DNA of 64,000 bases from Minisyncoccota bacterium (GTDB lineage Bacteria; Patescibacteriota; Microgenomatia; PFEM01; JAFGMK01): contig JAFGMK010000015.1 in the NCBI GenBank assembly GCA_016927565.1, positions 1,149 through 65,148 of the forward strand, given 5' to 3'. Position 1 is the first letter of the stretch. Each line of letters begins with the position of its first letter. The notes below the pieces were generated by a model. It worked only from the letters and a program-made list of their open reading frames with translations. It was not told the origin of the DNA and did not search any database. Shown in pieces: positions 9,642-64,000 of this stretch. The translations under genes and the position numbers were made by a program.

Positions 9642-10492
9642 TTATTATCAGTTTTAATACCCGGCAGCTTTTAAAGAGTTGTCTAATCAGTCTTTTCCAA
9701 ATTACTGACAAGCTCTTTTTTGAAGTAATTGTAGTTGATAATAATTCTCAGGATGGTTCGGTCGAACTGGTTAAAAAAGAATTTCCTCAAGTCAAATTGA
9801 TAGCTAACAAAGATAATTTAGGTTTCGGCCGGGCAAATAACCAGGGCCTGAAAGAAGCTCGGGGTAAAATGATCTTGTTTTTAAATTCGGATACGATTGT
9901 TCATTCTCGGGCGCTGGAAGAGCTGACGCATTTTTTAAAATTTAATCCCAAAGTGGGAGTGGTGGGCCCCAAGCTTTTAAACCGGGACGGAACCGATCAG
10001 GCTTCAGCGGGAAGTTTTCCCTATTTGGGGATTTGCGCTATTATGCTTTTCGCCGAACATTTCTGGCCTAACCGGCTGGTTCGGGGATCGGGCGCGCAGA
10101 TACGACTGGTTGATTGGGTGATGGGAGCGGCAATGGTTTTCAGAAAAGAAGTTTTAGATCAGGTCGGGGGCTTTGATGAAAATATTTTCATGTATCTCGA
10201 GGAGGTTGAATTATGTTACCGGGTGAAAAAAGCTGGTTGGCAAATCGCCTTTTTTCCCGAAGCGGTAATCACTCATTTCGGTCAAGGGAGTTCCCAAAGC
10301 GGCCGGAAAGGGCCAATTTTGGGTATTTATAAGGGGTTGGCTTATTTTTACCGGAAACACCGGCCCGGCTGGGAAGGGCGATTCCTTAAATTGATGCTGA
10401 AAATTAAAGCCGGCTCAGCTTATTTGCTTGGCAGTTTAACTAAGAATGATTATTTAAAGGAGACTTATGGTCAGGCATTCCGGCTGGTTTGA
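9611..10492 (+). CDS. GT2 family glycosyltransferase
   Basis: IDLSIIIISFNTRQLL...VVDNNSQDGS...LNSDTIV, a GT2 signature arrangement. Confidence 0.75.
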   Translation: MAEKRIDLSIIIISFNTRQLLKSCLISLFQITDKLFFEVIVVDNNSQDGSVELVKKEFPQVKLIANKDNLGFGRANNQGLKEARGKMILFLNSDTIVHSRALEELTHFLKFNPKVGVVGPKLLNRDGTDQASAGSFPYLGICAIMLFAEHFWPNRLVRGSGAQIRLVDWVMGAAMVFRKEVLDQVGGFDENIFMYLEEVELCYRVKKAGWQIAFFPEAVITHFGQGSSQSGRKGPILGIYKGLAYFYRKHRPGWEGRFLKLMLKIKAGSAYLLGSLTKNDYLKETYGQAFRLV

Positions 10493-11939
10493 TAAAAATA
10501 TACTTTCCTGGCTGGTGATCAGTCTTTTGTTGTTTGTTCCTCTTTATCCGAAGTTTCCTCTTTTTGAAGTGCCGGGAACATATGTTGCCGTCCGTTTGGA
10601 AGATTTTTTGATCGGAGGGGTTTTGTTGATTTGGTTCTTAAAAGAAATAAATCAGGGATGGCCGACTCTGAAACAGCGGGTTTCCCGGCTGGTTTTGCTT
10701 TATTTTTTGGCCGGATTGGTTTCGTTAGCCAATGCTCTGCTGATTAGCCGGGTGATTACTCCTCATTTGGCTTGGCTGCATTTCTTCCGGCGAATAGAAT
10801 ACATGTCTTTGTTTTTTGTTGCTTTGGCTTCAGTTCGGGAAAAAAGACACATCCTGAGCTATGCGCTAACTCTTTTTTTGGCCGCTGCCGGGGTTTTTCT
10901 TTTTGGTTTAGGTCAAAAATATCTCAATTGGCCGGTAATTTCGACGATGAACGAAGAGTTCAGCAAGGGAATGGCTTTGTATTTGAGCAAATGGACCAGG
11001 ATTAATTCTACTTTTGCCGGTCATTACGACTTAGCCGCCTTTGCGGTTTTAATTTTTTCTCCTTTCCTGGGTTTTATGATGGGGGTTAAAAGAAGGTGGC
11101 TGAAGCTGGCGGGGCTGACGGTAGCGGTAATGGCTTTTTATCTTTTAATTTTAACAGCTTCAAGAATTTCTTTCGGAGCGTATTTGATTAGCGCTGTTCT
11201 GGTCCTTTTTTGGCTAGGGAAAAAGAAATTGGCTTTGCCGTTGGTTGGTTTGAGTCTGGCAGTGATGCTTTTAACCGGAGACTTGGGGCAAAGATTTGCC
11301 GCTACTTTTAATCTTGATTTGAAACTGAACCTGCCGAAGATTAAATTAGGCCAGAAGAAAGTGGCTCAATTGCCGCAGGCAACAGTGACGCCATTACCGC
11401 CGCCGCCAGCGGAAAATCAGCCGGAGGTTGATGAACTAAAGCCAAAAAAGGCAACAGGTGAGGGCGAAATTCAGGAAAAAAAGAAAGCGACAGTCGAGGT
11501 TTATTTTCCCGAGCCCGAGTCGGTTGAATTGGCTGCTCAGCGATCGGGGGAGATCCGTTTTAAAGTTGAATGGCCGCGGGCAATAAGAGCTTTTCTGAAG
11601 AATCCTCTGGTAGGAACGGGATTTTCCTCAGTAACTCTGGCCACTGATAATGACTACTTACGGATTTTAGCCGAAACCGGCCTTTTGGGCGGAATTAGTT
11701 TTGCCTTGATTTTTTTGGAATTTTTCAAAAAGTTTTTTGTTTTTCACCGGAAAACCAAGTGGTGTCCTCAAAAGGCAGTAGTTACCGGCATCGCCGGAGC
11801 AATGGTCGGTTTTTTGGCAAACGCTGTTTTTATTGATGTTTTTGAGGCTTCCAAGGTGGCTTTTCTGTTTTGGATGCTTATGGGAATTATGGTGGGAACA
11901 ATTAATTTATATCAAACAAGGGATTTATTTCAAAATTAA
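10467..11939 (+). CDS. O-antigen ligase/polymerase-like (Wzy_C) membrane protein with an inserted Pro/Lys/Glu-rich low-complexity loop
   Basis: Multi-TM protein. C-terminal PLVGTGFSSV...DNDYLRILAETGLLGGISF matches O-antigen ligase family ends. About 90 aa of TPLPPPPAENQPEVDELKPKK... are inserted. Confidence 0.55.
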   Translation: MVRHSGWFDKNILSWLVISLLLFVPLYPKFPLFEVPGTYVAVRLEDFLIGGVLLIWFLKEINQGWPTLKQRVSRLVLLYFLAGLVSLANALLISRVITPHLAWLHFFRRIEYMSLFFVALASVREKRHILSYALTLFLAAAGVFLFGLGQKYLNWPVISTMNEEFSKGMALYLSKWTRINSTFAGHYDLAAFAVLIFSPFLGFMMGVKRRWLKLAGLTVAVMAFYLLILTASRISFGAYLISAVLVLFWLGKKKLALPLVGLSLAVMLLTGDLGQRFAATFNLDLKLNLPKIKLGQKKVAQLPQATVTPLPPPPAENQPEVDELKPKKATGEGEIQEKKKATVEVYFPEPESVELAAQRSGEIRFKVEWPRAIRAFLKNPLVGTGFSSVTLATDNDYLRILAETGLLGGISFALIFLEFFKKFFVFHRKTKWCPQKAVVTGIAGAMVGFLANAVFIDVFEASKVAFLFWMLMGIMVGTINLYQTRDLFQN

Positions 11940-13408: not shown

Positions 13409-14622
13409 AAATTTTGATGATTACGCCCTATTTGCCTTATCCGCCTTCCTCCGGGGGGCAGGTAAGGTCTTACAATCTTATCAAGCAATTGGCGACCCGT
13501 CATGAAATTACTCTTTTTTCTTTAATTAAAGACCCCGGTGAAAAAAAATATGTCAAAAAACTTTTACATTATTGTCGAAAGGTGGGCGTTTTTGCCAGAT
13601 CGAAAAAAGCCTGGAATCTTAAAAATATTTTACAGACCGGCTTTGGCCTTTTCCCCTTTTTAGTGGTCAGGAATTTTTCCTCTGAGGCTAAATGGGCTTT
13701 AGTCAAAGAGCTTAAGAATTATCATTACGATTTGATTCATGCGGAAACTTTTTATGTAATGCCCCATCTGCCGATGTCTGCGGTTCCGGTTTTGCTGGTT
13801 GAGCAGACAATCGAATATCAGGTTTACGCCCATTTTGCCAAAAACCTGACCGGTTGGGCCAGGCTTTTAAAACCACTGCTTTATCTTGACGTGGCTAAAC
13901 TCAGGTGGTGGGAAAAATACTATTGGCAAAAAGCCGAGGGGGTGATCGCTGTTTCGGAAGCGGATAAGAATAAAATGATGACTCTTTGCCCCCGGCTTAA
14001 AGTAGGGGTTGTGCCCAATGGAGCGGGAGAAGATTTGATGAAGCTTTGGGGGAAGACAAAGCCGGCTAAAAAGCCGACTTTCTTTTTCCAGGCCAATTTT
14101 AGCTGGTTGCAAAACATTGAAGCGGCTCGGATTTTGGCCAGAGAGGTTTTTCCCCGGATTAAAAAAGAAATTCCCGAGGCGGAGTGCTGGATTGTAGGCC
14201 AAAGCGCCAGAGATAAAATTGGCTCCTTGAGTTCGGCTGATGTTAAAATTGTTGATCTTAAGACAGCTGATATCAAAGGAGTGGTTGAGGCTTATAAGCA
14301 AGCTACTGTTTTCATTGCTCCTTTACAAGGTCCGGGAGGCACTCGGTTGAAAATCCTGGCGGCAATGGCAGCCGGAGTGCCGGTGATTACGACTCGCGTG
14401 GGGATTGAAGGAATTGATGCTCGTGATGGCCGGGAGATTATTATCAGGGATAATTGGTCTGAAATGGCCAGGGCGGCTGTTCTTTTGATTCGTCAGAAGA
14501 AAGCCCGTTTCGGGTTGGCCTACTCTGCCCGCAAATTGATCGAAAGGCGTTACAGTTATCAAAGCATTGCCCGGTCATTGGCCCGGGTTTATCGGGAGAT
14601 TGCCGATGAGAAAAAAAGTTGA
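13405..14622 (+). CDS. GT4 family glycosyltransferase
   Basis: MKILMITPYLPYPPSSGGQVRSYNL N-terminus typical of GT4. C-terminal GT-B domain. Confidence 0.75.
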   Translation: MKILMITPYLPYPPSSGGQVRSYNLIKQLATRHEITLFSLIKDPGEKKYVKKLLHYCRKVGVFARSKKAWNLKNILQTGFGLFPFLVVRNFSSEAKWALVKELKNYHYDLIHAETFYVMPHLPMSAVPVLLVEQTIEYQVYAHFAKNLTGWARLLKPLLYLDVAKLRWWEKYYWQKAEGVIAVSEADKNKMMTLCPRLKVGVVPNGAGEDLMKLWGKTKPAKKPTFFFQANFSWLQNIEAARILAREVFPRIKKEIPEAECWIVGQSARDKIGSLSSADVKIVDLKTADIKGVVEAYKQATVFIAPLQGPGGTRLKILAAMAAGVPVITTRVGIEGIDARDGREIIIRDNWSEMARAAVLLIRQKKARFGLAYSARKLIERRYSYQSIARSLARVYREIADEKKS

Positions 14623-15529
14623 TCTTTCAGTAATAATCCTCAGTTTTAATACCAGAAGCCTGCTTTATGATTGTCTTCGGTCAGTCTTGAAAGCGGCGAA
14701 AACGGCTTCTGCTTATCAAATTCAGATAATTGTGGTTGATAATGCTTCTAAAGATAAAAGCTCTCAGATGGTCAAAAAAGCCTTTCCTCAAGTTGGTTTA
14801 ATCCAAAACAGAAAGAATCTTGGTTTTTCTGCCGGGAACAATGTCGGGCTTAAAAAGGCCCGGGGAGGATATGTTCTGTTTTTAAATTCCGATACCATAG
14901 TTTCCCCCCGGGCTTTTCAGGAAATTATCACTTTTCTAAATCAGAATCCCGGGGCCGGAGCGGTTTCGGCTAAAACAATGCTGGCCAGCGGCAGGATGGA
15001 TCCCGACTGTCATCGGGGTTTTCCCACTCCCTGGGCCTCTTTGACCTATTTTTTGGGCTTAGAACGGCTTTTTCCCCGAAGCCGTATTTTTGGCCAGTAT
15101 CATCAGTTTTTTAAAAATCTGGATAAGGTTCACGAAATAGATGCCGGCGCAGGCGCTTTTATGGTTGTGAGGAGAAAGATGCTTCGGCAGGTTGGTAACT
15201 GGGATGAAGGTTATTTTTTTTACGGCGAAGATTTGGATTTTTTCTACCGGATTAAGAAAGGCGGCTGGCAGGTATTGTTTTATCCCCGTCCTTTATTAAC
15301 CCATTATAAGGGGGCCAGCTCAGGTTTGAGAAAAGAATCCCGGGGAAAGACCAGGCCGAGCCGGAAAACCCGTCTTCAGGTTGCCAGGGCTTCAGTTCAG
15401 GCGATGGAAATTTTTTACCGTAAGTTCTATCGGGATGTTTATCCCCGATGGCTAACCTGGCTCGTTCTTTTAGCCATCAGACTGAAAGGTTTTTTGAGAA
15501 TCACCGCTAATTATCTAAGAAAAGATTAA
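14606..15529 (+). CDS. GT2 family glycosyltransferase (start moved to ATG 14606, MRKKVDLSVIILSFN)
   Basis: VDLSVIILSFNTRSLL...VVDNASKDKS...LNSDTIV. The longer ORF would overlap the upstream gene by 56 nt. Confidence 0.7.
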   Translation: MRKKVDLSVIILSFNTRSLLYDCLRSVLKAAKTASAYQIQIIVVDNASKDKSSQMVKKAFPQVGLIQNRKNLGFSAGNNVGLKKARGGYVLFLNSDTIVSPRAFQEIITFLNQNPGAGAVSAKTMLASGRMDPDCHRGFPTPWASLTYFLGLERLFPRSRIFGQYHQFFKNLDKVHEIDAGAGAFMVVRRKMLRQVGNWDEGYFFYGEDLDFFYRIKKGGWQVLFYPRPLLTHYKGASSGLRKESRGKTRPSRKTRLQVARASVQAMEIFYRKFYRDVYPRWLTWLVLLAIRLKGFLRITANYLRKD

Positions 15530-15554
15530 TTCTGGCCGAATTAAAAGAGGTTTT

Positions 15555-16688
15555 ATGAGAATTGGGATTGATGCCCGCTTCTGGGGGCTGGAGCATACCG
15601 GTATTGGCCGCTATGTAATGGCCCTGGTTAGCCACCTTGAAAAAATTGACTCGGGAAATGATTACTTTATTTTTTTAAGAGAAAAATACTTTAACCGGCT
15701 GGAATTTTCCAATCCCCGGTTCAGAAAAGTTTTGGCTGATTTTCCTCATTATTCTTTAAAAGAGCAGATCGCTTTCCGGCGGGTTTTGCTCCGCCAGAAA
15801 CTTGATTTGGTTCATTTTCCCCATTTTAATTTGCCTGTTTTTTACCCCGGTCGTTTTGTGGTGACGATTCACGATTTGATTAAACATGAATCAAGGGGGC
15901 CTTTAACAACTACCCGCTTCAAAGCCTTTTATTACTTTAAATACCTGGGTTATTTACTGGTTCTGAATTTAGCCTTGAGGCGAGCGAAAAAAGTGATTGT
16001 TCCCAGTTTTTGGTGGAAACGAAAGTTAATCAAAAAATTCGGTCTGGAAGCGGATAAAATCGGAGTGACTTATGAATCGGTGAGTGAGGCTTTTTTTCGC
16101 AAAAATGATTTGAAGATCGGAAAGAAAATTTTGACCAAATATGGCATTCAGACTCCCTTTGTGATTTATACCGGCAATCTTTATCCTCATAAAAATGTTT
16201 TAACCTTAGTTAAGGCGATTAAAAAAATTAATCGGGAAAGGCGGCTTTTTTTAGTAATTGTTTGCGCCAAAAGTGTTTTTTGGCAGCGTTTCCAAAAAGA
16301 AATTAGTCAATTGGGGGCGGGAGATTTAGTTATTTTGGCCGGTTTTGTCTCTGATGCGGAGCTGACGAATCTTTATCGGTTGGCAGAGGCATTTGTTTTT
16401 CCGACTCTTTTGGAGGGTTTTGGCTTGCCGGGTCTGGAGTCAATGGCGGCTGGCTTGCCGGTTGTTTGTTCCCGCTCTTCTTGTTTGCCTGAGATTTATC
16501 AAAAAGCGGCTTTGTATTTTAACCCCAAAAAAGCGATTGATATTAAAGAAAAAATTGAACTGCTTTTGGAAAATAAATATCTACGAAAAGAACTTATTCG
16601 AAAAGGTAAAAGTCGGGTAAAGGGTTTTAGCTGGGAGAGGATGGCTCGGGAAACGATTGAGATTTATCAACAGGCAATTGAGGTTTAA
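15555..16688 (+). CDS. GT4 family glycosyltransferase
   Basis: MRIGIDARFWG... N-terminus; C-terminal EGFGLPGLESMAAGLPVVCS. Confidence 0.75.
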   Translation: MRIGIDARFWGLEHTGIGRYVMALVSHLEKIDSGNDYFIFLREKYFNRLEFSNPRFRKVLADFPHYSLKEQIAFRRVLLRQKLDLVHFPHFNLPVFYPGRFVVTIHDLIKHESRGPLTTTRFKAFYYFKYLGYLLVLNLALRRAKKVIVPSFWWKRKLIKKFGLEADKIGVTYESVSEAFFRKNDLKIGKKILTKYGIQTPFVIYTGNLYPHKNVLTLVKAIKKINRERRLFLVIVCAKSVFWQRFQKEISQLGAGDLVILAGFVSDAELTNLYRLAEAFVFPTLLEGFGLPGLESMAAGLPVVCSRSSCLPEIYQKAALYFNPKKAIDIKEKIELLLENKYLRKELIRKGKSRVKGFSWERMARETIEIYQQAIEV

Positions 16689-54235: not shown

Positions 54236-54307
54236 GGGCTCGTGGCTCAGGGGTAGAGCGTTCCGTTCACATCGGAAAGGTCGATGGTTCGAATCCATCC
54301 GGGCCCA
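54236..54307 (+). tRNA. tRNA-Val (anticodon CAC)
   Basis: Hand-folded cloverleaf. Acceptor GGGCTCG/CGGGCCC (one GU pair), D-stem GCTC/GAGC, anticodon stem TTCCG/CGGAA with loop TTCACAT (anticodon CAC). T-arm GATGG-TTCGAAT-CCATC, discriminator A. No encoded CCA. Confidence 0.8.
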
Positions 54308-54430
54308 CAATAAAATTGCGGTGTCCGGATGAGACGAGAACCATTCACAGGCGGAGGAGAGATTGAGATTTTTGACTTGCTTGAATAACAAATGTTTCTC
54401 AACAAGTTAAAAAGGCCTTTTCGAGGCGTC

Positions 54431-54452
54431 TTCGAATCCATCCGGGCCCACA
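54431..54452 (+). repeat. Direct repeat copy 2 of tRNA-Val 3' end (att-like core)
   Basis: Exact 22-nt identity to tRNA positions 54288-54309. Confidence 0.8.
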
Positions 54453-54679
54453 ATTTTGAAGAATTTGAGCCGCCGCAAAAATAAAGAAAAAAAATAGCAA
54501 AATTTTAAAGAACTAAAACTTAAAGTCGAAGAATCCCCGCCGAAGGGAATTCTTCGACTTTGCTCAGGATGACAGTGAGAAAATTATCACTCAACAGCCT
54601 CAGTAAAGTTTTGCGGAACTCTTGAAACTAAAATTTATATATATCTTTAAAAAAGTGCGAAAATAGAAAGGCGGAAATT

Positions 54680-55516
54680 ATGGATCAATTAGAACAACCT
54701 CGACCCGCAAGAACCGAGAAGAGTAGTTCTGCTTTTGCTGTAATGTTAGAGGCTTTACGAGCACAGGAGAGCAGACTAGCTTTATTAGGACAAAGAGATG
54801 CAAGAGCTACTCGTGTATTTCAAGATTATCATCTCCCTGGGCAGGAATTTACAAGACAACAAGATGGAAAACAAGTGGAAGTGGTTAGGGGTTTAGTCGA
54901 CCCCGAAGAATATGCCATTCTCGTAAATAAATATAATGGTGGAGCTCAATTGCTAAAAATAGTAGATGAAGATCAAAAAGCATTAGCTGAGGGTTGGAAA
55001 ACAATTGGGCTGAAAGGTGAACCGCCCTTACATTCTTCTTTGGAAATTATTGTTGGCAATATAAACGATCCAAAAACTTGTTATAGGTATAAGGTTTTAG
55101 ATGCGCGCTCGACGGATGATTCTACCGGAGTAGTTATTACGGTTCAACAAAACATTGAACACGAAAGAGAAGGAGGGGCATTTATGCCATTTAGAGTTTC
55201 GGCTGGGAAAGAAAAGCCAGAACTAAGAGGAGAAACTTCCGTTCGCGACACTCCCCCATTATCAATGGCGGTGGTAAGCGACAGCGGGTTTACTGATTCT
55301 CAAAGAAGGTTAATGAGAAAAGATAATTTCCCACCTAAACTAGCGCTTGGAAGACGAACTGGAAGTCTAATAGCCCATCAACGAGTCCCTGAGGGAATGA
55401 CAAGATTTGCAGACGATGTCGCTAATTTAGAGATAGATTTACAAAGAGATAATCTCTGGGTAGTGGCGATAAGCGGAGACGCTGTAGAAGCCCAATGTAA
55501 AGCATTAAAATTGTGA
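54680..55516 (+). CDS. Hypothetical protein of foreign origin (no recognisable domain)
   Basis: Codon usage differs from neighbours: AGA Arg, TTA/CTA Leu and A-ending Ala/Gln codons, versus CGG/CGC Arg and CTT/TTG Leu in flanking genes. It is flanked by the att-like repeats. Confidence 0.5.
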   Translation: MDQLEQPRPARTEKSSSAFAVMLEALRAQESRLALLGQRDARATRVFQDYHLPGQEFTRQQDGKQVEVVRGLVDPEEYAILVNKYNGGAQLLKIVDEDQKALAEGWKTIGLKGEPPLHSSLEIIVGNINDPKTCYRYKVLDARSTDDSTGVVITVQQNIEHEREGGAFMPFRVSAGKEKPELRGETSVRDTPPLSMAVVSDSGFTDSQRRLMRKDNFPPKLALGRRTGSLIAHQRVPEGMTRFADDVANLEIDLQRDNLWVVAISGDAVEAQCKALKL

Positions 55517-55565
55517 TGAGTACCACTGAAGAATAGGTAGATTTTCTACTGAAAATCAGGAAAAT

Positions 55566-55603
55566 TAAAAGACAAAAAACTGATTCGAAGCGTCTTCGAA
55601 TCC
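55566..55603 (-). terminator. Rho-independent terminator for the minus-strand methyltransferase gene, overlapping att-like repeat copy 3
   Basis: On the minus strand: hairpin GATTCGAAG-ACG-CTTCGAATC (9-bp perfect stem, 55583-55603) followed by AGTTTTTTGTCTTTT. Confidence 0.45.
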
Positions 55604-55616
55604 ATCCGGGCCCACA
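55595..55616 (+). repeat. Direct repeat copy 3 of tRNA-Val 3' end (att-like core)
   Basis: Exact 22-nt identity to tRNA positions 54288-54309; 27-nt identity to copy 2 including the upstream GCGTC. Confidence 0.8.
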
Positions 55617-55620
55617 GGAT

Positions 55621-57156
55621 TCATTCTTTATTCAAAATTGCCAAAAAATCATTTCCCCAAAGGATATTGAGAGGGAAATAATTGCTGATTGGATAAAGAT
55701 AAATCAGGCGGTTGTATAACTTATCTTTCCAACTAAGTTCTGGTTTGATTACCGTCAGGTTAGTAGTTTTAATCTTGCCCTTAAAGCCATTTTTTTTAAA
55801 CAGCTTTCTCAAGTAGAAGTAGGTCGGCTCGTTGACATGAACTTTTTTCTGGTGCTCGGTTCTCAAGTCATGCCATCGAGGCAAGTTAGGATATTTTTTG
55901 CCTGTTAACCAATTAGAAAATGAGATTAGGAAAGTGCTGATTGGATAGCACCAAAATCGATAAATTAAGTCGTTAAACCACCGATTAGGAGCGGTATGGA
56001 CAATCAGAACGCCGTTAGATTTAAGAATTCTTTTAATTTTTTTCAAAATTATTTCCTGTTCCCAAAGATAGAGATGTTCCAGAATCTCAACTAAAACCAC
56101 CACATCGAAACTGTTTTTTCTAAAACTTAGTTTTTTTGCATCCATCAATTTAAAGCCGGCTCTTTTTCTTACCCCGGGAGGCTGTTTTTCGAAGGCTTCT
56201 TGGGCTAAGTTAATTGCCTCTTTTGAGTAGTCAATTCCGATGGCATTTAAGCCTTTTTTGGCTGCCCAAAAAACTAACTCGCCTCGGCCACAACCAATAT
56301 CAAGGAGCCTGAATCCTCTTTCCAGAGGAATTTCACCTGCAATCCGTTTTAAGCGGGGTTCAAGTATTTGCCCCTGGCTTTTTTTAAATTCTTTATAGCC
56401 GGAACAGGATTTTAAGAAATACTGTCGAGTATAGAGTGCCGGGTCAACTCTTTCAGAAGGTAAGTTTTTTTTCTTCTGAATGTAAAAGATTGTTCGAATG
56501 GTGGATCCCAGGTCGAAAATCGGCAGAATCGGGTTAAGACAGAAAAGCCAAAACCGCCGATAGCGGAGAAGGTGATAAAGCCGGGGAATTTTAAAATAAA
56601 TTTTTTGAAAAAGAAGCCAAAAAGTTAAATTGGCATTTTTCCCGGTGGTTATTTTGGCTCGAGGATCAGCCTGCCGGATTAAATTTAAAATAGTTTCTTT
56701 TTCCGGATGACCCAATTTGAGGTGTTCTTCGAGATAGCCGTGTTTTTGACAGGACTGACGGTGACAAAGAAACTGATGAAATTTTCTATGAGCCTCGAGA
56801 GATTGGTGGCCGGTGGGAACAGCCAAAATTACCGTTTTCCTGGCAACGCGGAGCATTTCTTTAATTGCTTCAGCTTGCTTTTTTTGACTGGTCAGATGTT
56901 CGAGAGTGTCAACAGAGACAACTAATTCAGCGCTTTTGTCCGGTAGTGGCAGTTTTTCGGCGCTGGTTTTGATTAGTTCGGTGTTGGGCAGGGGTTTTTT
57001 GACAAAATTCAGGTCGCAGTCAATAATCCGGTAGTCAGGCAAATACCATCCCAAGCCTTCGCCAGTACCGCCAATCTCGACAATTTTTTTGCTTTCAAGC
57101 TTATTTTTTTTGATTGCCCGAACAATCGGCGCGTATCTTTGAATGATATCCAGCAT
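55621..57156 (-). CDS. Tandem two-domain class I SAM-dependent methyltransferase
   Basis: Two Rossmann methyltransferase motif-I regions (IVEIGGTGEGLG... and LLDIGCGRGELV...), each followed by a motif-III/post-I acidic region (SVDTLEHL / VLVEILEHL). Confidence 0.7.
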   Translation of the reverse strand: MLDIIQRYAPIVRAIKKNKLESKKIVEIGGTGEGLGWYLPDYRIIDCDLNFVKKPLPNTELIKTSAEKLPLPDKSAELVVSVDTLEHLTSQKKQAEAIKEMLRVARKTVILAVPTGHQSLEAHRKFHQFLCHRQSCQKHGYLEEHLKLGHPEKETILNLIRQADPRAKITTGKNANLTFWLLFQKIYFKIPRLYHLLRYRRFWLFCLNPILPIFDLGSTIRTIFYIQKKKNLPSERVDPALYTRQYFLKSCSGYKEFKKSQGQILEPRLKRIAGEIPLERGFRLLDIGCGRGELVFWAAKKGLNAIGIDYSKEAINLAQEAFEKQPPGVRKRAGFKLMDAKKLSFRKNSFDVVVLVEILEHLYLWEQEIILKKIKRILKSNGVLIVHTAPNRWFNDLIYRFWCYPISTFLISFSNWLTGKKYPNLPRWHDLRTEHQKKVHVNEPTYFYLRKLFKKNGFKGKIKTTNLTVIKPELSWKDKLYNRLIYLYPISNYFPLNILWGNDFLAILNKE

Positions 57157-57219
57157 TAAGAGAATTTTAACATTTCTTGCCTATTGAATTTTTTCTGTTA
57201 TTCGTTTTATTATTAAAGT

Positions 57220-57636
57220 ATGGATCTGGCTGATTTTAAAAGCAAAGCGAGATTGGCTGACTCTTTTTTTGAAGAGCTTTCTGCCCGGCTTGATTTTAGA
57301 TCTTTGGTAGTGCTTTTGCTGGTGGCGCTGGTGGTTCCGATTTCGCTGATGGTGGCTTTGTGCCGGAATAATCTTTCCGTAGATGAAGCGATAATTAAGG
57401 CAAAACTTTTAACGACTTCGGGCAAACCCGCTCAGGCAACTAGGTTGTTGATGTCTTTAAGAAAGAAGAATTTGACCGAACAGTCTGAAAAAAAATTGAT
57501 TTTAGCGCTGATGGAGAATAACCGCCTTGATCAGGGACAGGTAGCAGGCGCTTCAGCTAAGCCGACGGTTACCCCCAAAGTCTCTGAAAGAGGAAGTGAT
57601 TTTACTTCTGATCTTGAAGCCTGGTTGACTGAATAA
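57220..57636 (+). CDS. Hypothetical protein with one TM helix
   Basis: ORF only. No motif recognised. Confidence 0.3.
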   Translation: MDLADFKSKARLADSFFEELSARLDFRSLVVLLLVALVVPISLMVALCRNNLSVDEAIIKAKLLTTSGKPAQATRLLMSLRKKNLTEQSEKKLILALMENNRLDQGQVAGASAKPTVTPKVSERGSDFTSDLEAWLTE

Positions 57637-57910
57637 GCATTGGCGGAATCATTTATCCGGCATAAGTTTCCTCTTCTTTTCCAAGCGGCAGTATTTTAAA
57701 ACCCAAATCCGGTTATTGAGGGGTTTGCCTCGGGATTGCGCCTCGCTCCGCCATTTTAAGCCTTGAAATATCTTGCCGATAAGGTTAAAATCCCGAATTA
57801 TACTAAGAGTCTGCTCCTCGGGTTCTGCTCTTGAAAAAGGATTGGTCTGTTTTGTGTGGGTCAAAAAAATCAGCCAGCCCTGCCAGCCCTAAAACAAAAA
57901 ATCCAAAAAC

Positions 57911-58708
57911 ATGGATATTAAAGTAAGAAAAGTTGTTATTTTTGCCGCCGGGAAGGGTACTCGTCTTTCACCGATTACTTCTTATATTCCCAAAGAAATG
58001 CTCCCGATTATTAACTTTCCGGTAATTCATTATGTTTTGGAAGAAAGTCTCGTGGATGGAATAGAGCAAGTCATCCTGGTTATTAAAAAGAATAAATCAT
58101 TAATTGCTGAATACGTCCGAGATTATCTGAACCGGAGAGAGGGAAAAAAGAAAGTTGGCTTGGAAATTGTTTATCAAAAAGATACCCATTACGGTACGGC
58201 GGCAGCCTTGATTGATGCCCGAAATCACTTAAAAAAAGAGCCTTTTTTAACAATGTTTGCCGACAGTTTTGCTCTCAAAAGAGATAATCGTCTCAAATTT
58301 TTGCTTCGAGTCTATCGGCAATATCGGGCTCCGGTTATAAGCCTGATCCCGGCAGGACCAAAAGAAGCCTGCACTTATGGAATGGTTGAGGCCGAAGAAG
58401 TAGAAAAGGACGTGGTATCAATTAAAAGACTCGTCGAGAAGCCGGGAAGGAATCTAAAACCGCCGGCGTATGCAGCGCCAAACGGCTATCTTTTAACTCC
58501 CGGCATTATTCCTTATCTTGACCGGTTAACGCCGGAAAAAAATGGCGAATTATCGCTTGTTGCGGCGATTACCGAGTATCTTGAAAAGAATAAAGTATAC
58601 GGGTCGGTTTTCAAAGGTCTTTTTTTTGAAGCGGGGAATCAGGTTGATTTTGTTGATTCCCAGACAAAAATGATTTTAGAGAGAAAAGATTTAAAAAGAG
58701 GGTATTAA
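57911..58708 (+). CDS. Sugar-1-phosphate nucleotidyltransferase, UTP--glucose-1-phosphate uridylyltransferase (GalU)-like
   Basis: KVVIFAAGKGTRLSPITSYIPKEMLPI N-terminal signature; the G-x-G-T-R-x-x-P and KEMLP motifs are typical of GalU. Confidence 0.7.
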   Translation: MDIKVRKVVIFAAGKGTRLSPITSYIPKEMLPIINFPVIHYVLEESLVDGIEQVILVIKKNKSLIAEYVRDYLNRREGKKKVGLEIVYQKDTHYGTAAALIDARNHLKKEPFLTMFADSFALKRDNRLKFLLRVYRQYRAPVISLIPAGPKEACTYGMVEAEEVEKDVVSIKRLVEKPGRNLKPPAYAAPNGYLLTPGIIPYLDRLTPEKNGELSLVAAITEYLEKNKVYGSVFKGLFFEAGNQVDFVDSQTKMILERKDLKRGY

Positions 58709-58850
58709 GTACGATTTCCGGCTATTCCGGGTAAGCTTCTGGTGGATTTTGAAACTTTACGACTGGATTTCTTCGGCAGAAAATCTTGGAGAAAGTAAAC
58801 TCTAAGTCCTATAGTATAGACTTTTATCTGTAGATATAATCTCATAAAGT

Positions 58851-59321
58851 ATGACCATTGAAGTACTGCTACCTAGAAAAAATTTAGATCCGTTTCGGAG
58901 AGAAAGTTTAAATGATCGTGAAGCTGGATTATTGAAAGCCCTACTTGCGGAATATGGAGTGACTTCAGAAACTCACTCCCGGGTTGTTGAGTTGTTTGCC
59001 GGAGATGCTCCTCATGCATTAATGATGGCAAATTTAGGCCGGGATGTGAGAAATATAGTTTGTGTGGATCGTTATTTGCCGGTTGAACCTCTTGTTGAGG
59101 GGGTGAAGTGGCGGCATCTTGATTTGTTTCAATTATCCGAAGCTTTGATTTTTGGCGAACCTTTACCCCAATCGGTGATAAATCTTCAATATAAAGGAGA
59201 CGTCGTTATTGCGATCAACGAATGGTGGAGAAATAGGGAAACGTTTGATAATGTCGTTGATTATTTTTGCAGGCCTGGTGGATTAGCTTATACACTTCGA
59301 GGTGTGAGAATCCGGGAATAG
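58851..59321 (+). CDS. Hypothetical protein
   Basis: ORF with somewhat atypical codon usage. No confident motif. Confidence 0.3.
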   Translation: MTIEVLLPRKNLDPFRRESLNDREAGLLKALLAEYGVTSETHSRVVELFAGDAPHALMMANLGRDVRNIVCVDRYLPVEPLVEGVKWRHLDLFQLSEALIFGEPLPQSVINLQYKGDVVIAINEWWRNRETFDNVVDYFCRPGGLAYTLRGVRIRE

Positions 59322-59642
59322 AACGAAAACTCTCAGTATTATCCTTGACTCTCCTTAGAATTCTAAGCCAGATACAAATTGGGGCTATCTTGGTGAGGTT
59401 TAGATGCCCGTCTTAGTGGTGGCCGATTAAATTTTTTTAGGATCCGATTGCCAATTAAAAGCCCGATTGATCTAAAAATAAGAGCCAGGGTAGCGGCAGT
59501 GGCAACCAAAAAAGTCTCTATCATGCAGGCGGCAATCATGAGGTTGCTTTTGCAATTCAAGCTGGCCCAGGAAATTCAAATAACATCAATTACCGGAGTC
59601 AAAAGCTAATAAAAGCGAGCAAGTGAGAGTCCCAAAAATTGG

Positions 59643-62276
59643 CTAATTCAGCAACTTTGGCAGAAAAAACATTAATTGGAAGTTATACATCCAAGCCATA
59701 TCTGACTGATTTTGCTCTAAAGCTTCTCTAGCTTTTTCAAGTAATTCATTTGAATACTCGAAATAAATTACTTTAATCAGAGGAATGGTTTGGCCTTTAT
59801 CTGTTTTGCGTTGTAAGTCTTTAGCCAGTTTTTGTAAAATTTTCTCTTGTGCCCAAATTTTTTTGTCGGTAATTTTAGGCTGTAATTTAACTTTAGCTTT
59901 GCTTACAATAACTTTCCAGGTATCAAATAGATCATTAATTATTCCTTCATACCCGGGAAAACTTTTCACTATTTCTTCCTGCTCTTGCTTTAGAAAACAA
60001 TGATTTAAAGCTATTAAAGAAGTTTGGACTAGGCTTTTGGCCTGGTTAAATTTTTGCTGTTTAAGGCTTTTTTCAAGCAGGTTTAAAAAAGGAATTATTT
60101 TGCAATTCTCTAGGTTTAATTCAAAAATTCGAGCTTTGGCGCTTTGGAAAGAGTTTAAGCCTTCAGGATCTTCTAGGGAAAAGTTAGGTTTAGCCGGGTC
60201 AAGCAAAAAAGAATCTACTTTAAGTTGATGGGTGGGAAACTGGTACTCGCGGATCTCAACATTTTCATCGGTATCAAGCCGGCCGAGCAGCAGGCGATAG
60301 TAACCCTGACCAGTACCGGTGATCCTAATTTGATATGTCTCATCTAGGGGATTAGGAATTAAAACAAAGTTTGCCTCACTATCATAAAAAGCATTAGAAA
60401 TTTCCGGTCCGGTGGTCTGATGGCCGATTTGATTCCCATGAATATCGGTGATAAGAATTTTGGCCGGCGATCGGATTAGAAAAATCAAAGCATTCTTAAG
60501 TTTCTCGAGTGGTGACAGGGTCGGGTTGGGAGAAAGATCAAGTAATCCGAAGAGTTGTTGGATTGCCTCTGGTTCTTTAACTAAGTCGTTGTGTTCCAGG
60601 GCAAAGTCATAAGCCTGAACTCCATTAAAAGTGGCGCTTTTAACCAGAACTGTTTCATCTCCCTGATTGGAATAAATCTTTGCGGATGAATAATCTTTGG
60701 CCCTATCATTATATTCACAGGTTGTTCCCGGGCAGAAATGGATAGGCTCGCCATCTTCCCAGAGGCCGAGGGCATAGTGAGCCCAGTTGGCATGGGGAGT
60801 TGTAATCGAGCTGACTTTAATTGATTCAAGGGTAGGAAAGCCGTAGCCGTAAAAAAGGCTGGTTTTGTTTTTGAGGTCTTGAGAAAAAGTTTGATTTAGT
60901 TGGCTTAAAGTTTGATTCTGATGAATATGATCAGCAACGTCTTTGAAGAGGCCGCTTTTACTATCAATCAGGAAATCGTGAGTAGGGAGAAGGTCGGCAA
61001 CTGAAGGAAAAGCCCGCCGGATGGTGTCTTTGGGATGTTCTCCTGGCTTCTTATTGGTAAACAAAAGTGTTTCTAAAAATAATTTGTATAGATTTTTAAC
61101 TTCCCAGATTTGACCGCCCTCCCAAGCGGCATAGGCGTGTACTGCTCCTTGATGGGGACTACCCAAAGTAATTAGTTTTTCGGTTTTATCTGGGTTAGCC
61201 TGAGCAAAAACTCGGCTAATCATTCCTCCCATGGAGTGGCCTACGAGATCCACTTTTTCTGTTGGATCTGTTTTGGCTTCGACAAACTCTTTAAGTTTGG
61301 CGGCGTTATCGGAGAATGGTTTGCGCCAATCATAACAAAAGAGATGCCAATCCTGATCTTTTTCAAGTCCGGCTTGATAGAAAGCATTAATTAGATTGTG
61401 GTAAAAAAAGAATCTGGCAGGTGAAAATAAATGCCAATTTTCTCCATTTTCCCCGCTAATCAATCCTTTATTCCAGCACGCTGTCATTCCAGGAAGAAAG
61501 ATGAGGGGAGTATATTCCATGTCATATATGAGAATAGAATCGACAGTTAGGCTGGTCCAGAGATCCCCAATTCCTTGGGTTGAGTTATTGCCAAACCATA
61601 TTGTATCGGGCCGCATGAGTGTTTCGGGTGAAACATATTTGAGCTCGTCATCAATAAAGATACTATATTTGTTATCTTTGTATTTAAGTTCTACAAAATG
61701 AAAGTCTAAATCAATTCCATTTGATTGGAATTTTATAATTTCACTTAAGGAGCAGTTTGGGGTATTATAGCAAGTTCCTGTATAAGATAAAATTAATCCA
61801 TAAACATTGTCTTGCCAAATTTGGAAAAACTTATATTGCGAATAAAGTGGATTGTTAATTGGCGTGTCGGTGGTTGTGTGGTATGGTGGTAGCTTTGTTC
61901 CGATTGCAAAGCCGACTCCTTTAGATTCCACTCGATTATATTTGAAGCCTACTTTAAGAGTAAAATCGCCCTGATTTGGAAATGGTCTAGGAATGTCATC
62001 TCTATAGGCAACGAAGGGGAAGGTTGAAGTTTTCTCTGCAGCGAGGAGGATTTTTCCAGCTTCTAAGGTTATTTGTCCTTCTTTTTCATAAGCCTGCCAA
62101 GTATCAGAATTCAGAGTGTTGAAATCCTCTTTAAAAAATATATTTTTAGCAAAAGCAGAGCCTCTAATATTAAGAAGTAAGGAAAACCAGAAAAGTAAAA
62201 ACAAAATACCTTTTGCATGTTTAGATCTCTTTGTTTTAAAATTAGCAAGAAAAGACACCTTGTAGAAATTAGACAT
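59643..62276 (-). CDS. Large secreted multi-domain protein: signal peptide, ConA-like lectin/glucanase-like N-domain and LCAT/PGAP1-like alpha/beta-hydrolase (lipase/acyltransferase) domain
   Basis: Signal peptide (LFLLFWFSLLLNIRGSAFA). YDWR motif followed by nucleophile elbow GHSMGG (CYDWRKPF...VDLVGHSMGGMISR), as in LCAT/PDAT/PGAP1-type lipases. AT-rich codon usage unlike the core genes. Confidence 0.6.
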   Translation of the reverse strand: MSNFYKVSFLANFKTKRSKHAKGILFLLFWFSLLLNIRGSAFAKNIFFKEDFNTLNSDTWQAYEKEGQITLEAGKILLAAEKTSTFPFVAYRDDIPRPFPNQGDFTLKVGFKYNRVESKGVGFAIGTKLPPYHTTTDTPINNPLYSQYKFFQIWQDNVYGLILSYTGTCYNTPNCSLSEIIKFQSNGIDLDFHFVELKYKDNKYSIFIDDELKYVSPETLMRPDTIWFGNNSTQGIGDLWTSLTVDSILIYDMEYTPLIFLPGMTACWNKGLISGENGENWHLFSPARFFFYHNLINAFYQAGLEKDQDWHLFCYDWRKPFSDNAAKLKEFVEAKTDPTEKVDLVGHSMGGMISRVFAQANPDKTEKLITLGSPHQGAVHAYAAWEGGQIWEVKNLYKLFLETLLFTNKKPGEHPKDTIRRAFPSVADLLPTHDFLIDSKSGLFKDVADHIHQNQTLSQLNQTFSQDLKNKTSLFYGYGFPTLESIKVSSITTPHANWAHYALGLWEDGEPIHFCPGTTCEYNDRAKDYSSAKIYSNQGDETVLVKSATFNGVQAYDFALEHNDLVKEPEAIQQLFGLLDLSPNPTLSPLEKLKNALIFLIRSPAKILITDIHGNQIGHQTTGPEISNAFYDSEANFVLIPNPLDETYQIRITGTGQGYYRLLLGRLDTDENVEIREYQFPTHQLKVDSFLLDPAKPNFSLEDPEGLNSFQSAKARIFELNLENCKIIPFLNLLEKSLKQQKFNQAKSLVQTSLIALNHCFLKQEQEEIVKSFPGYEGIINDLFDTWKVIVSKAKVKLQPKITDKKIWAQEKILQKLAKDLQRKTDKGQTIPLIKVIYFEYSNELLEKAREALEQNQSDMAWMYNFQLMFFLPKLLN

Positions 62277-62348
62277 TATAATTTTTTCTTTGTCAAGGTC
62301 TTTGAATGCTTTTAAGAAAGCAACTAAAAAAAGAGACCTAGTTTAAAT

Positions 62349-63158
62349 TTGAAAAAATCAAGCAATAAGGAATTAGATAACATAGTGCGGCTTTTTTCGG
62401 ATAAATTGTGGTATAGTCCATCAGATATTTTTATAAGGGCAGCAGAAGCCTTAATTTGGAATCATCAGAAATTTACTCCTCCGGTTTTGGAAATTGGCTG
62501 TGGAAATGGCAGAATCAGTAGCCTTCTTTTTATGAATAAAACAAAGGTTGATGTTGGCGTTGATATTGATGCGCATGAAATAGAGAATGCTAAAAAAATA
62601 AAACTATATAGCAGATTGGCCGTTGCAGATGCGGCCGAGCTTCCCTTTCAAGATAGGAAATTTAATACCGTTGTAGCCAATAGTACTTTTGAACATATAA
62701 GAAAAGACATTTCTTCGGTGTGCGAGGTCTTTCGTATTTTAAAGGAGGGTGGTTCTTTTATGTTTACTGTTCCCACCAGAAGGTTTGAGAGCGCTCTTTT
62801 GTCTACAATAATAAATAAAAATAATTTACAAAAAATTAATGATAGACTTAAGCATTTTCATTATAGAGAAGTTGATGAATGGATCGCAATACTGAAGAAT
62901 AATGGTTTTAGCATGACTAGTTATCAAGAATATATGTCGGATAACGCTGTTAAAGATTGGTATAAGCTTTTTAGGCTTAGCACTTTCAAAGTGAGAGGTC
63001 GCGAATTGTGGTCTTATTTAGAAAATTTTTCTCATAAAAAAATAATTCCGAAGAAAATTTTTTCCATTTTGGTTTCAAGTTTTTTGCTAAAACTTTACCA
63101 TGAAATGTTTGTGCCGGGCGGCACTTGGTTATTTATTGCTGCTCGAAAATTAAAATGA
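62349..63158 (+). CDS. Class I SAM-dependent methyltransferase
   Basis: Motif I VLEIGCGNGRIS and motif post-II/III ...TVVANSTFEHI. Confidence 0.7.
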   Translation: MKKSSNKELDNIVRLFSDKLWYSPSDIFIRAAEALIWNHQKFTPPVLEIGCGNGRISSLLFMNKTKVDVGVDIDAHEIENAKKIKLYSRLAVADAAELPFQDRKFNTVVANSTFEHIRKDISSVCEVFRILKEGGSFMFTVPTRRFESALLSTIINKNNLQKINDRLKHFHYREVDEWIAILKNNGFSMTSYQEYMSDNAVKDWYKLFRLSTFKVRGRELWSYLENFSHKKIIPKKIFSILVSSFLLKLYHEMFVPGGTWLFIAARKLK

Positions 63159-63240
63159 TGCGACGAAAAACATGTAGCACGTTTCTGGGATAATCAGAGT
63201 CAATTAAAAGTTGTCCCGGATAGGGGGGGTGCCATGAATT

Positions 63241-64000
63241 ACGTCGGCATCGATTTGCATAAAAGGTTTTCGCAGCTTACGGTTTTTAATGAAGCAGGAG
63301 AAATTTTGGATAGAGAAAAAGTTGATAACTAAAAAGCAGCGATAGTTTCGCGCCTTAACAATTTTGATCAACCCGGTAAAGCAGTTATTGAAGATACTTT
63401 TGCCTGGGACTGGTTGGCAGACTTGCTGGCTGATAATAGAATAGAGGTAATGTTAGCTCATCCCCAAAAAGTCAAGATAATTGCCCCGGCCCAAATTAAG
63501 ACAAACAAGAATGGCTCTGAAATCTTGACTAAGCTTTCAAAAGCCGATCTGATTCCTGAGGCTTGCTATTCGCCTAAGGAAGAAAGAGAGGCTAAAGAGG
63601 TAAGATGTCGGGCTTCTCTGGTTGGGCTTAAAGACTCAGATCAGGAATCGAATCCATTCCCTTTTCTGCAAGACTAACAGTCAGGAAGCGGAGGGGGTAT
63701 GGCGATCTGTTCGGCAAAAAAGGCCGGCTCTTTTTAAAAGGACTTGATTTAGGAGAGAAGTTTAACTTTGCTCTTAAGCGGTATTTGGCAATACTGGAGT
63801 TTCCAGAAGTCCAAGTCAAGGAAGCTGATCAAGAGCTAAAGGGGATCTCTAAAGAGGATAAGCAAACCAAACTGCCCGAGCAGTTGCATTGCGGCGCTCT
63901 AATCCTTATCCTGGCAGGCTTTTTATCAGAAGATAAACAGCAAGAAGGGTCATGGCAAAGCCAGGGTGGCTGCGGCCGGAAAGATGCTTAGTCAGATTTG
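63241..64000 (+). mobile_element. IS110-family transposase gene, frameshifted/degenerate (pseudogene), continues past window end
   Basis: MNYVGIDLHKRFSQLTVFNEAGEIL matches the IS110 (DEDD) N-terminal VGIDVxK motif and then hits a stop. VMLAHPQKVKIIAPAQIKTNKNGSEILTKL...LIPEACYSPKEEREAKEV and following segments continue the IS110 consensus in two other frames. Confidence 0.6.

Follow-up and report, generated by a model that had tools for sequence, protein, structure and literature searches.

A tRNA-Val-linked 1.3-kb insert and an IS110 pseudogene in a probably native surface-glycan neighbourhood of a Microgenomatia bacterium

We have analysed a stretch of 64,000 nucleotides from a Minisyncoccota bacterium (Patescibacteriota; Microgenomatia; assembly GCA_016927565.1, contig JAFGMK010000015.1), a metagenome-assembled genome, and refer to the whole of it as the window. 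Its tail, from the tRNA-Val gene to the window end (54236-64000), differs from the core that precedes it (~1-54 kb), and an original prediction made from the sequence had taken the entire tail for a single acquired genomic island, with the tRNA gene, attachment (att) repeats and an insertion sequence (IS) as its signature. The traces of mobile DNA are real, since there is both an att-flanked insert and an IS110 pseudogene, but the repeats enclose only 1.3 kb, the principal genes are syntenic in relatives and an integrase is lacking. We propose that the tail is a native, fast-turnover surface-glycan and lipid neighbourhood that has received a decayed insertion resembling a cis-mobilizable element (CIME) and an IS110 copy which became a pseudogene, a reading to which we give a probability of about 0.72. 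On this reading, the segment from 55617 to ~63158 is a resident, vertically inherited envelope neighbourhood lying downstream of rodA-rplU-rpmA-parB-lepB(-)-tRNA-Val. The clearly foreign DNA is confined to 1.3 kb at the tRNA gene and to the IS110 pseudogene, both of them known kinds of element. What novelty remains lies in the orphan family of orf278, the one gene of the insert, and in the very small size of the att-flanked unit that carries it.

Tandem repeats of the tRNA-Val 3′ end

The sole tRNA gene of the window is an intact tRNA-Val with the anticodon CAC, located at 54236..54308 on the plus strand (ARAGORN; Rfam 67.7 bits). A 22-mer from its 3′ end, TTCGAATCCATCCGGGCCCACA, occurs in exactly three copies in the 64 kb, at 54288, 54431 and 55595, where shuffled sequence is expected to contain none. 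Copy 1 (54288-54309) consists of the last 21 nt of the tRNA plus one base. It is followed by a 143-bp non-coding remnant (unit 1, 54310..54452), which closes with copy 2 (54431-54452), and by an att-bounded segment of 1164 bp with a single gene (unit 2, 54453..55616), which closes with copy 3 (55595-55616). The order is tRNA-core, 143-bp unit, core, 1164-bp unit, core. That att repeats exist at the tRNA gene had been foreseen correctly, but they bound 1.3 kb (54310-55616) and not 9.8 kb, and no fourth copy was found in 55617-64000 even when up to three mismatches were allowed.

The two units have only their terminal 33 nt in common. Copies 2 and 3 are preceded by 11 further shared nucleotides that are unlike the tRNA and conserved at 10 of the 11 positions, which extends the repeat to 33 nt with 97% identity (54420-54452 and 55584-55616); these extra nucleotides are element-derived. 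Together with the start of the core they form a palindrome, GATTCGAAG-CGT-CTTCGAATC, spanning 54418-54438 and 55582-55602. On the minus strand a T-run comes right after the palindrome, directly downstream of the stop codon of the methyltransferase gene MT511, from which copy 3 is separated by 4 nt, and the insert may now supply the MT511 terminator. The only open reading frame (ORF) of at least 60 aa entirely within the repeats is orf278 (54680..55516, plus strand), the cargo of unit 2. The same unit contains a 17-bp near-perfect hairpin (54522..54561), 119 nt upstream of orf278, which resembles a terminator on the minus strand only, where there is no gene to terminate.

Read as anatomy, the repeats would represent the classical footprint of an integrase-type insertion into the segment from the T-loop to the 3′ end of the tRNA gene, twice in tandem. 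Integrative elements are known to accrete in tandem at tRNA 3′ ends and to leave integrase-less, decayed derivatives, the CIMEs, which have lost the genes for integration and transfer and kept attL and attR (PMC5704250). The insert has three exact 22-nt att copies derived from the tRNA 3′ end, and its single gene, orf278, has no match in the profile libraries that would make it an integration or transfer gene. It can also be compared with an ancestral site: in the closest relative (contig DATKWK010000035.1, here L003; ParB 82% identical) a 233-aa ortholog of the N-terminal half of MT511 begins 70 nt beyond tRNA-Val, and after it come a hypothetical gene and an ortholog of the hydrolase lip877 (44% identity over 694 aa). 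By its gene order L003 represents the empty site for the 1.3-kb insert.

A hypothetical junction of the empty site in the window would read ...GGGCCCACA|GGATTCATTC, and a hypothetical circular form would join the end of unit 2 (…GATTCGAAGCGTC) through the core to its start (ATTTTGAAGAAT…). Neither a circular junction nor a second copy of the unit was found in public contigs. A scan of all ORFs of at least 60 aa in the tail revealed no integrase, the only mobility gene being the IS110 pseudogene. Our comparison set of 80 related Microgenomates loci contains no duplication of the tRNA end, and the non-coding parts of the element gave only tRNA-derived or chance matches at other loci.

From this anatomy we infer the following course of events. 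A tyrosine-recombinase-type element with an attP mimicking the tRNA-Val 3′ end would have integrated, the tRNA being restored in the process, and the same or a related element would have integrated again in tandem. Deletions would then have reduced the elements to integrase-less remnants of 143 and 1164 bp, in which only the att sites and a single cargo gene, orf278, survive. Elsewhere in the tail, an IS110 copy entered behind the methyltransferase gene MT269 and has since become a pseudogene.

The cargo gene is itself unusual. It is the strongest codon-usage outlier of 57 genes, with a GC content at third codon positions (GC3) of 0.272 (z -4.9) and a codon adaptation index (CAI) at z -4.7 when compared with 50 core genes. 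Only 5 relatives were found among 5.8 × 10⁹ clustered proteins and 29 clusters with a profile among 1.84 × 10⁹ representatives; all family clusters looked up are singletons, with one contig apiece. The gene is also absent from the related loci and in that sense lineage-specific. Searches of Pfam, PHROGs, NCBIfam and PADLOC gave no match, its profile gave nothing significant against the PDB, a tblastn search of phage and plasmid records found no match, and the family is without a match in IMG/VR or JGI contigs. An AlphaFold2 model reached a mean confidence (pLDDT) of 82 with 24 sequences and 39 with only 5, and has no Foldseek neighbour. The family shares the motifs LG..D..AT, R.LLDPEEY, P.TCYR, N.EHEK, G.RTG..I.HQR and LWVV. 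The gene is intact, and with dN/dS values of 0.13-0.39 the family evolves under purifying selection.

The genomic contexts of the family are diverse. The closest homolog, on contig L083 (dS 0.45), has in common with the window only the ORF and 34 nt, the flanks being entirely different. On that contig the homolog is preceded, at positions 1-97, by the 3′ part of an ORF that ends in ...RPKSLNYKTPAQYL...; we take this tail to resemble the C-terminus of an IS30-type DDE transposase. The 3′ 430 nt of the contig are much GC-richer. One family member lies 158 nt downstream of tRNA-Ile (L087), another follows tRNA-Glu, tRNA-Lys and tRNA-Gln (L088), and a third is found among chromosomal genes (L093). 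Two adjoin PIN-toxin genes (L091 and L094), the PIN pair being just upstream in L091. In L094 the stretch 10001-11572 carries two tandem orf278 paralogs (193 and 197 aa) between guanylate kinase and the PIN-toxin pair. Since the contexts differ and the tRNA-end repeats accompany none of the other family members, orf278 behaves as a rare mobile accessory gene. An association of the family with tRNA genes was considered and dropped, as only 3/7 contexts are tRNA-adjacent, too few for such a claim.

The same facts can be given a livelier interpretation, namely that the 1164-bp unit can still move as a non-autonomous mini-element of the CIME or satellite type, excised and integrated in trans by an integrase whose gene lies elsewhere in the genome or on a co-resident element. 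The att copies on either side agree perfectly over 22 nt, the 11 nt on the element side are conserved at 10 of 11 positions between copies 2 and 3, and the palindrome has been preserved; orf278 is intact and evolves under purifying selection; and CIMEs can be mobilised in cis or trans (PMC5704250). In addition, an independent Logan assembly breaks exactly at the tRNA/att, which is what a mixture of alleles with and without the insert would produce, but this break may equally come from another strain with the same tRNA. Since the window has no integrase, public contigs have neither a circular junction nor a second copy, and the family members elsewhere have no att repeats around them, we regard continued mobility as unlikely. 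It appears more doubtful still that the unit is a living minimal integrative element in the wider sense, either such a trans-moved satellite or one in which orf278 acts as a new tRNA-targeting recombinase or mobility factor. Such a unit, if real, would rank with the smallest of the known site-specific integrative elements.

The envelope neighbourhood downstream of tRNA-Val

The case for a resident neighbourhood comes from the 80 related loci, 76 of which carry lepB. In 61 of these 76 the block rodA-rplU-rpmA-parB-lepB(-) is followed by tRNA-Val within 1.5 kb, and 30 of the 61 have a homolog of lip877 downstream, on the minus strand every time; where the sequence after tRNA-Val extends for 6 kb or more, as it does in 33 loci, the homolog is present in 23. 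Since all 30 syntenic homologs lie on the minus strand, the orientation of lip877 is itself conserved. L003 was deposited as 'Candidatus Bathyarchaeia archaeon' and dozens of the loci L004-L082 as 'uncultured Gammaproteobacteria/Pseudomonadales', names that are evidently wrong, because all of these records carry the rodA-rplU-rpmA-parB-lepB-tRNA-Val block of Microgenomates, members of the candidate phyla radiation (CPR). The source of the window is itself placed among Microgenomates-type CPR bacteria by its ParB, and NCBI lists the genome as 'Candidatus Pacebacteria bacterium'.

A Pfam census of the 8 kb that follow tRNA-Val in 19 relatives, with 114 ORFs in all, counted 22 S-adenosylmethionine-dependent methyltransferases (SAM-MTases), 20 glycosyltransferases (GTs) of family 2, 18 LCAT/PGAP1-like proteins, 13 GTs of family 4, 10 polysaccharide flippases and 10 Kelch-domain proteins. 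The earlier suggestion of a module for surface-glycan or lipid decoration agrees with these counts. What occupies the slot from tRNA-Val to the hydrolase is variable: several loci have nothing there, L022 and L024 have RuvABC, and L035 has EF-P with an EpmA-like gene. In L022 a Type II restriction-modification (R-M) pair is also found, at 13591-15613 between ruvC and the conserved hydrolase; it consists of an EcoO109I-like endonuclease together with a C5-cytosine methylase with a MerR helix-turn-helix. We considered whether the slot might be a general landing pad for mobile elements and rejected the idea, as the relatives hold RuvABC, EF-P/EpmA-like, R-M and hypothetical genes and no integrase.

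In the window, tRNA-Val is followed by seven sizeable ORFs and then by a stretch without a long ORF. The largest is lip877 (59643..62276, minus strand), an 877-aa secreted or anchored LCAT/PGAP1-like hydrolase which consists of a signal-like N-terminus, an N-terminal module, an alpha/beta hydrolase domain and an uncharacterised tail of ~430 aa. Its Pfam match to LCAT (PF02450) scores 46.3 bits against a cut-off of 21 over profile positions 66-215 of 392 only, PGAP1 is likewise above its cut-off, and the nucleophile elbow GxSxG is present as GHSMGG and matches nucleophile elbows of lipases in the PDB. The protein had been predicted to be a lectin-lipase fusion. The hydrolase half of this description is borne out by Pfam, but the lectin half emerges only from a profile of orthologs searched against the PDB, the N-terminal and C-terminal parts of lip877 having no Pfam match. 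The ortholog in L003 scores 23.4 bits for a ConA-like domain (DUF1080/CBM66), below the cut-off of 26.8, and a profile built from 6 orthologous N-terminal domains finds the DUF1080-type structure 4jqt (E 9.5 × 10⁻⁷) and a levanase CBM66 (E 0.012). On these similarities an N-terminal ConA-like, sugar-binding beta-sandwich is plausible. The module is swapped between lineages: the putative beta-sandwich version occurs in the window, L003, L031, L054 and L037, Kelch repeats take its place in the Amesbacteria-type hydrolases (L007-L053), and the hydrolase of L035 has yet another N-terminal domain.

MT511 (55621..57156, minus strand) is convergent on the tRNA and encodes a 511-aa protein with two SAM-MTase stretches (Pfam Methyltransf_11/25/31, above the gathering score). 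Its N-terminal half is 51% identical to the stand-alone 233-aa gene directly after tRNA-Val in L003 and its C-terminal half 48% identical to a stand-alone gene in L026, which adjoins a 42% homolog of MT269. Because the halves are separate in relatives, MT511 is a lineage-specific fusion of two modules from the same neighbourhood, and a native gene. MT269 (62349..63158, plus strand; 269 aa) is a stand-alone SAM-MTase, also above the Pfam gathering score, and very AT-rich (GC 0.337); homologs with 38-42% identity occupy the same neighbourhood in L013, L014 and L026. Where a double and two stand-alone methyltransferases had been predicted, the double one and MT269 are confirmed, but there is no third gene with support from a hidden Markov model (HMM), as orf156, orf278 and orf138 are all negative. 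The HMM-supported methyltransferases amount to two genes with three domains.

NT265 (57911..58708, plus strand; 265 aa) has been identified correctly as a GalU-like sugar-1-phosphate nucleotidyltransferase. It matches NTP_transferase (PF00483) with 98 bits against a cut-off of 21.2, and the GalU equivalog of NCBIfam, TIGR01099, with 155.8 bits, below the cut-off of 326.8. Its nearest homologs are 42-48% identical, and one of them sits in a glycosylation cluster. For the two hypothetical proteins, orf138 (57220..57636, plus strand, of core-like composition) and orf156 (58851..59321, plus strand), domain searches had been suggested, but Pfam, PHROGs, NCBIfam and PADLOC contain no match to either; a PDB search with orf156 likewise gave nothing significant. 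A single homolog of orf156, 52% identical, occurs in Patescibacteria, and orf156 itself has an 'ELFAGD' motif that is Rossmann/MTase-like by eye only. The 321-nt gap between orf156 and the 3′ end of lip877 contains a 65-aa ORF with a strongly hydrophobic segment (59363-59560, minus strand), which may encode a small membrane protein or be a chance ORF.

As for what these proteins do together, the minus-strand secreted ConA-like/LCAT-like hydrolase is the anchor of the neighbourhood, with the methyltransferases and the GalU-like enzyme grouped around it. NT265 would activate a sugar-1-phosphate, and the sugar would be transferred to a surface glycoconjugate. The methyltransferases might methylate sugars, by O-methylation on the glycoconjugate, or lipids, and the hydrolase might bind the glycan through its beta-sandwich and cleave or transfer acyl chains of envelope or host lipids. 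Patescibacteria are devoid of lipid synthesis, the mechanisms by which they take up and break down lipids have not been identified (PMC11665869), and it has been proposed that phospholipases attack the envelopes of their hosts (PMC11665869; PMC12455944). Given this background and its positional conservation, lip877 is a reasonable candidate for lipid acquisition or remodelling.

The last feature of the tail is an IS110-family transposase pseudogene (63235..64000, plus strand), which continues past the window end and had been recognised as degenerate in the original prediction. It begins MNYVGIDLHK, and three-frame translation shows an in-frame stop and at least two frameshifts. When the translation is read through one stop, DEDD_Tnp_IS110 is matched with 31.2 bits against a cut-off of 29 over profile positions 1-94/155. 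The C-terminal part has no Pfam match, and Transposase_20 is no longer detectable. Neither the rest of the window nor any of the 80 related loci contains another IS110 copy, and the remnant is a lineage-specific pseudogene of at least 0.8 kb.

In its composition the tail does stand apart, much as had been described. The GC content of its 2-kb windows is 0.378-0.414 compared with a core mean of 0.437 (sd 0.019), corresponding to z values of -1.2 to -3.1, and its dinucleotide signature is somewhat farther from the core. Coding density falls from 0.98 in the core to 0.78, the gaps being longer. GC3 or CAI is atypical in orf278, MT269, orf156 and lip877, and large minus-strand genes occur only in the tail, apart from lepB. 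A foreign origin does not follow from the lower GC, however, since the 8 kb downstream of tRNA-Val are AT-richer than the 8 kb upstream in 23 of the 24 relatives with enough flanking sequence. The difference averages -0.039 in the relatives (Wilcoxon p = 2 × 10⁻⁵) and amounts to -0.038 in the window. The step is a family-wide property of the neighbourhood and no sign of a recent acquisition in this genome; such a step is typical of fast-evolving surface-glycan clusters. GC skew has the same sign on both sides of the tRNA boundary, and the cumulative skew climbs monotonically over the whole window. In the core (1-54000) every gene of at least 100 aa except lepB(-) is on the plus strand. The gaps between these genes have a median length of 4 nt, and a dcw-type block with MurG, FtsA, FtsZ, IleRS and RodA is included.

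That the whole of 54236-64000, or more, is a single island acquired at tRNA-Val with IS110 near its far end has become very improbable. Its adjacency to a tRNA gene, lower GC, mixed strands, low coding density and IS remnant are those of an island, several of its genes are without counterparts in relatives, and Patescibacteria are reported to carry genomic islands commonly (PMC12455944). Against this, the att copies enclose 1.3 kb and none occurs after 55616, many Microgenomates have the hydrolase and the methyltransferases in synteny with tRNA-Val, the hydrolase keeps its minus-strand orientation in relatives and the GC step recurs in 23/24 of them. Synteny by itself has already largely refuted the single-island model: the hydrolase, both MT511 halves and MT269 are syntenic, while orf278, orf138, NT265, orf156 and the IS110 remnant are lineage-specific, and it is for the latter that the expectation of non-conserved genes has come true.

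Assembly support and points against a resident neighbourhood

As the window comes from a metagenome, one might suspect that the tandem repeats are an assembly artefact in which strain alleles were concatenated through a short repeat downstream of a common tRNA. The window is 100% identical to two contigs (L001 and L002) of an independent k=31 Logan assembly of run SRR13394437. L001 spans 54279-64074 unbroken and so contains all three repeat copies in one piece, the first of them with 9 tRNA-specific nt. The longest exact repeat, 27 nt, is shorter than k-1, so that the path of L001 is unambiguous, which argues against a concatenation. The Logan assembly does break inside tRNA-Val, a point in favour of an artefact, with L002 ending at 54282 and L001 starting at 54279, but the two halves join into a perfect tRNA-Val. 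We therefore consider an artefact highly improbable. The break does imply that another sequence in the sample has the same 3′ part of the tRNA, and it hints at a second flanking context for tRNA-Val, which could be that of another strain or of an insert-free allele.

Least credible of all is the idea that orf278 is a new kind of site-specific recombinase and the 1164-bp unit a minimal autonomous tRNA-targeting element, for although no ORF other than orf278 lies between the perfect att sites, 3/7 family contexts are just downstream of tRNA genes (Val in the window, Ile in L087, Gln in L088), the predicted fold has no known neighbour and polar motifs (including HQR and EHEK) are conserved, the family has no invariant Tyr or Ser nucleophile and no similarity to any recombinase family, four contexts are without a tRNA, the repeats are found in none of the others, and the tandem paralogs of L094 lie within housekeeping genes.

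Several observations also weigh against our own reading of a native neighbourhood with a decayed CIME-like insertion. An integrase is not found nearby, nor is there an intact relative of the element, and for this reason the argument for an integrase-mediated origin is an anatomical one. The attP-like 27-mer and the 22-mer core had 0 matches in IMG/VR or JGI contigs, and the other contexts of the orf278 family are without tRNA-end repeats. Within the neighbourhood, orf138, NT265, orf156 and the IS110 remnant lack a counterpart in the 80 related loci, and MT269 and the hydrolase deviate in composition. Part of the region 55.6-63.2 kb may also stem from gene exchange, probably between Patescibacteria. 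Finally, the nearest available genome has a ParB identity of only 82%, so that a recent gain or loss cannot be dated.

Meaning of the locus and comparison with known systems

The locus provides a cautionary case for genome scanning, in which a tRNA gene, short repeats, lower GC, mixed strands and an IS mimicked a 10-kb island, and relatives reveal the GC step and the gene order as ancestral features of a surface-glycan neighbourhood. It is at the same time a clean example of what looks like an integrase-type insertion, with tandem att sites, in a tRNA gene of Microgenomates, and its cargo orf278 represents a rare orphan family with a confidently predicted fold and no structural neighbour. The positionally conserved secreted hydrolase is a concrete candidate for how lipid-auxotrophic CPR bacteria obtain or remodel lipids; the syntenic ConA-like/LCAT-like enzyme could be the missing lipid-harvesting enzyme of Patescibacteria.

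The insert compares best with CIMEs and the accretion described for ICESt1-type elements (PMC5704250), with which it shares direct repeats of the tRNA 3′ end, three att copies bounding two tandem units, the lack of integration and transfer genes in these units, and a tRNA that was restored intact. It differs in size, the units measuring 143 and 1164 bp as opposed to the kilobases to tens of kilobases of described CIMEs, and in its host, a CPR bacterium in which no parent integrative and conjugative element (ICE), integrative and mobilizable element (IME), prophage or cognate integrase was found. With the classical tRNA-linked islands, as defined by the criteria for pathogenicity islands, the tail has in common the adjacency to a tRNA gene, the lower GC, the IS remnant and accessory surface functions, but here the repeats enclose only part of the region, an integrase is missing, key genes are syntenic and the compositional step is family-wide. 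The transposase pseudogene resembles the IS110 family in its N-terminal DEDD domain and a recognisable C-terminal tail and departs from it in a frame broken by a stop and frameshifts, with Transposase_20 not detectable. Similarly, lip877 shares with LCAT/PGAP1-like lipases and secreted bacterial lipases (Burkholderia lipase 1ys1) the GxSxG elbow and Pfam matches to LCAT and PGAP1 above the cut-offs; unlike these it matches over ~150 residues only and is fused to a putative ConA-like N-terminal module (Kelch in Amesbacteria) and a 430-aa tail. The neighbourhood as a whole is closest to surface-polysaccharide or O-antigen-type clusters. Its anchor, an LCAT/PGAP1-like hydrolase, and the lack of a GT or flippase in the visible part set it apart from them, but like them it combines a conserved location and anchor genes with a fast-changing content of nucleotidyltransferases, methyltransferases, GTs and flippases, at a GC content below that of the genome core.

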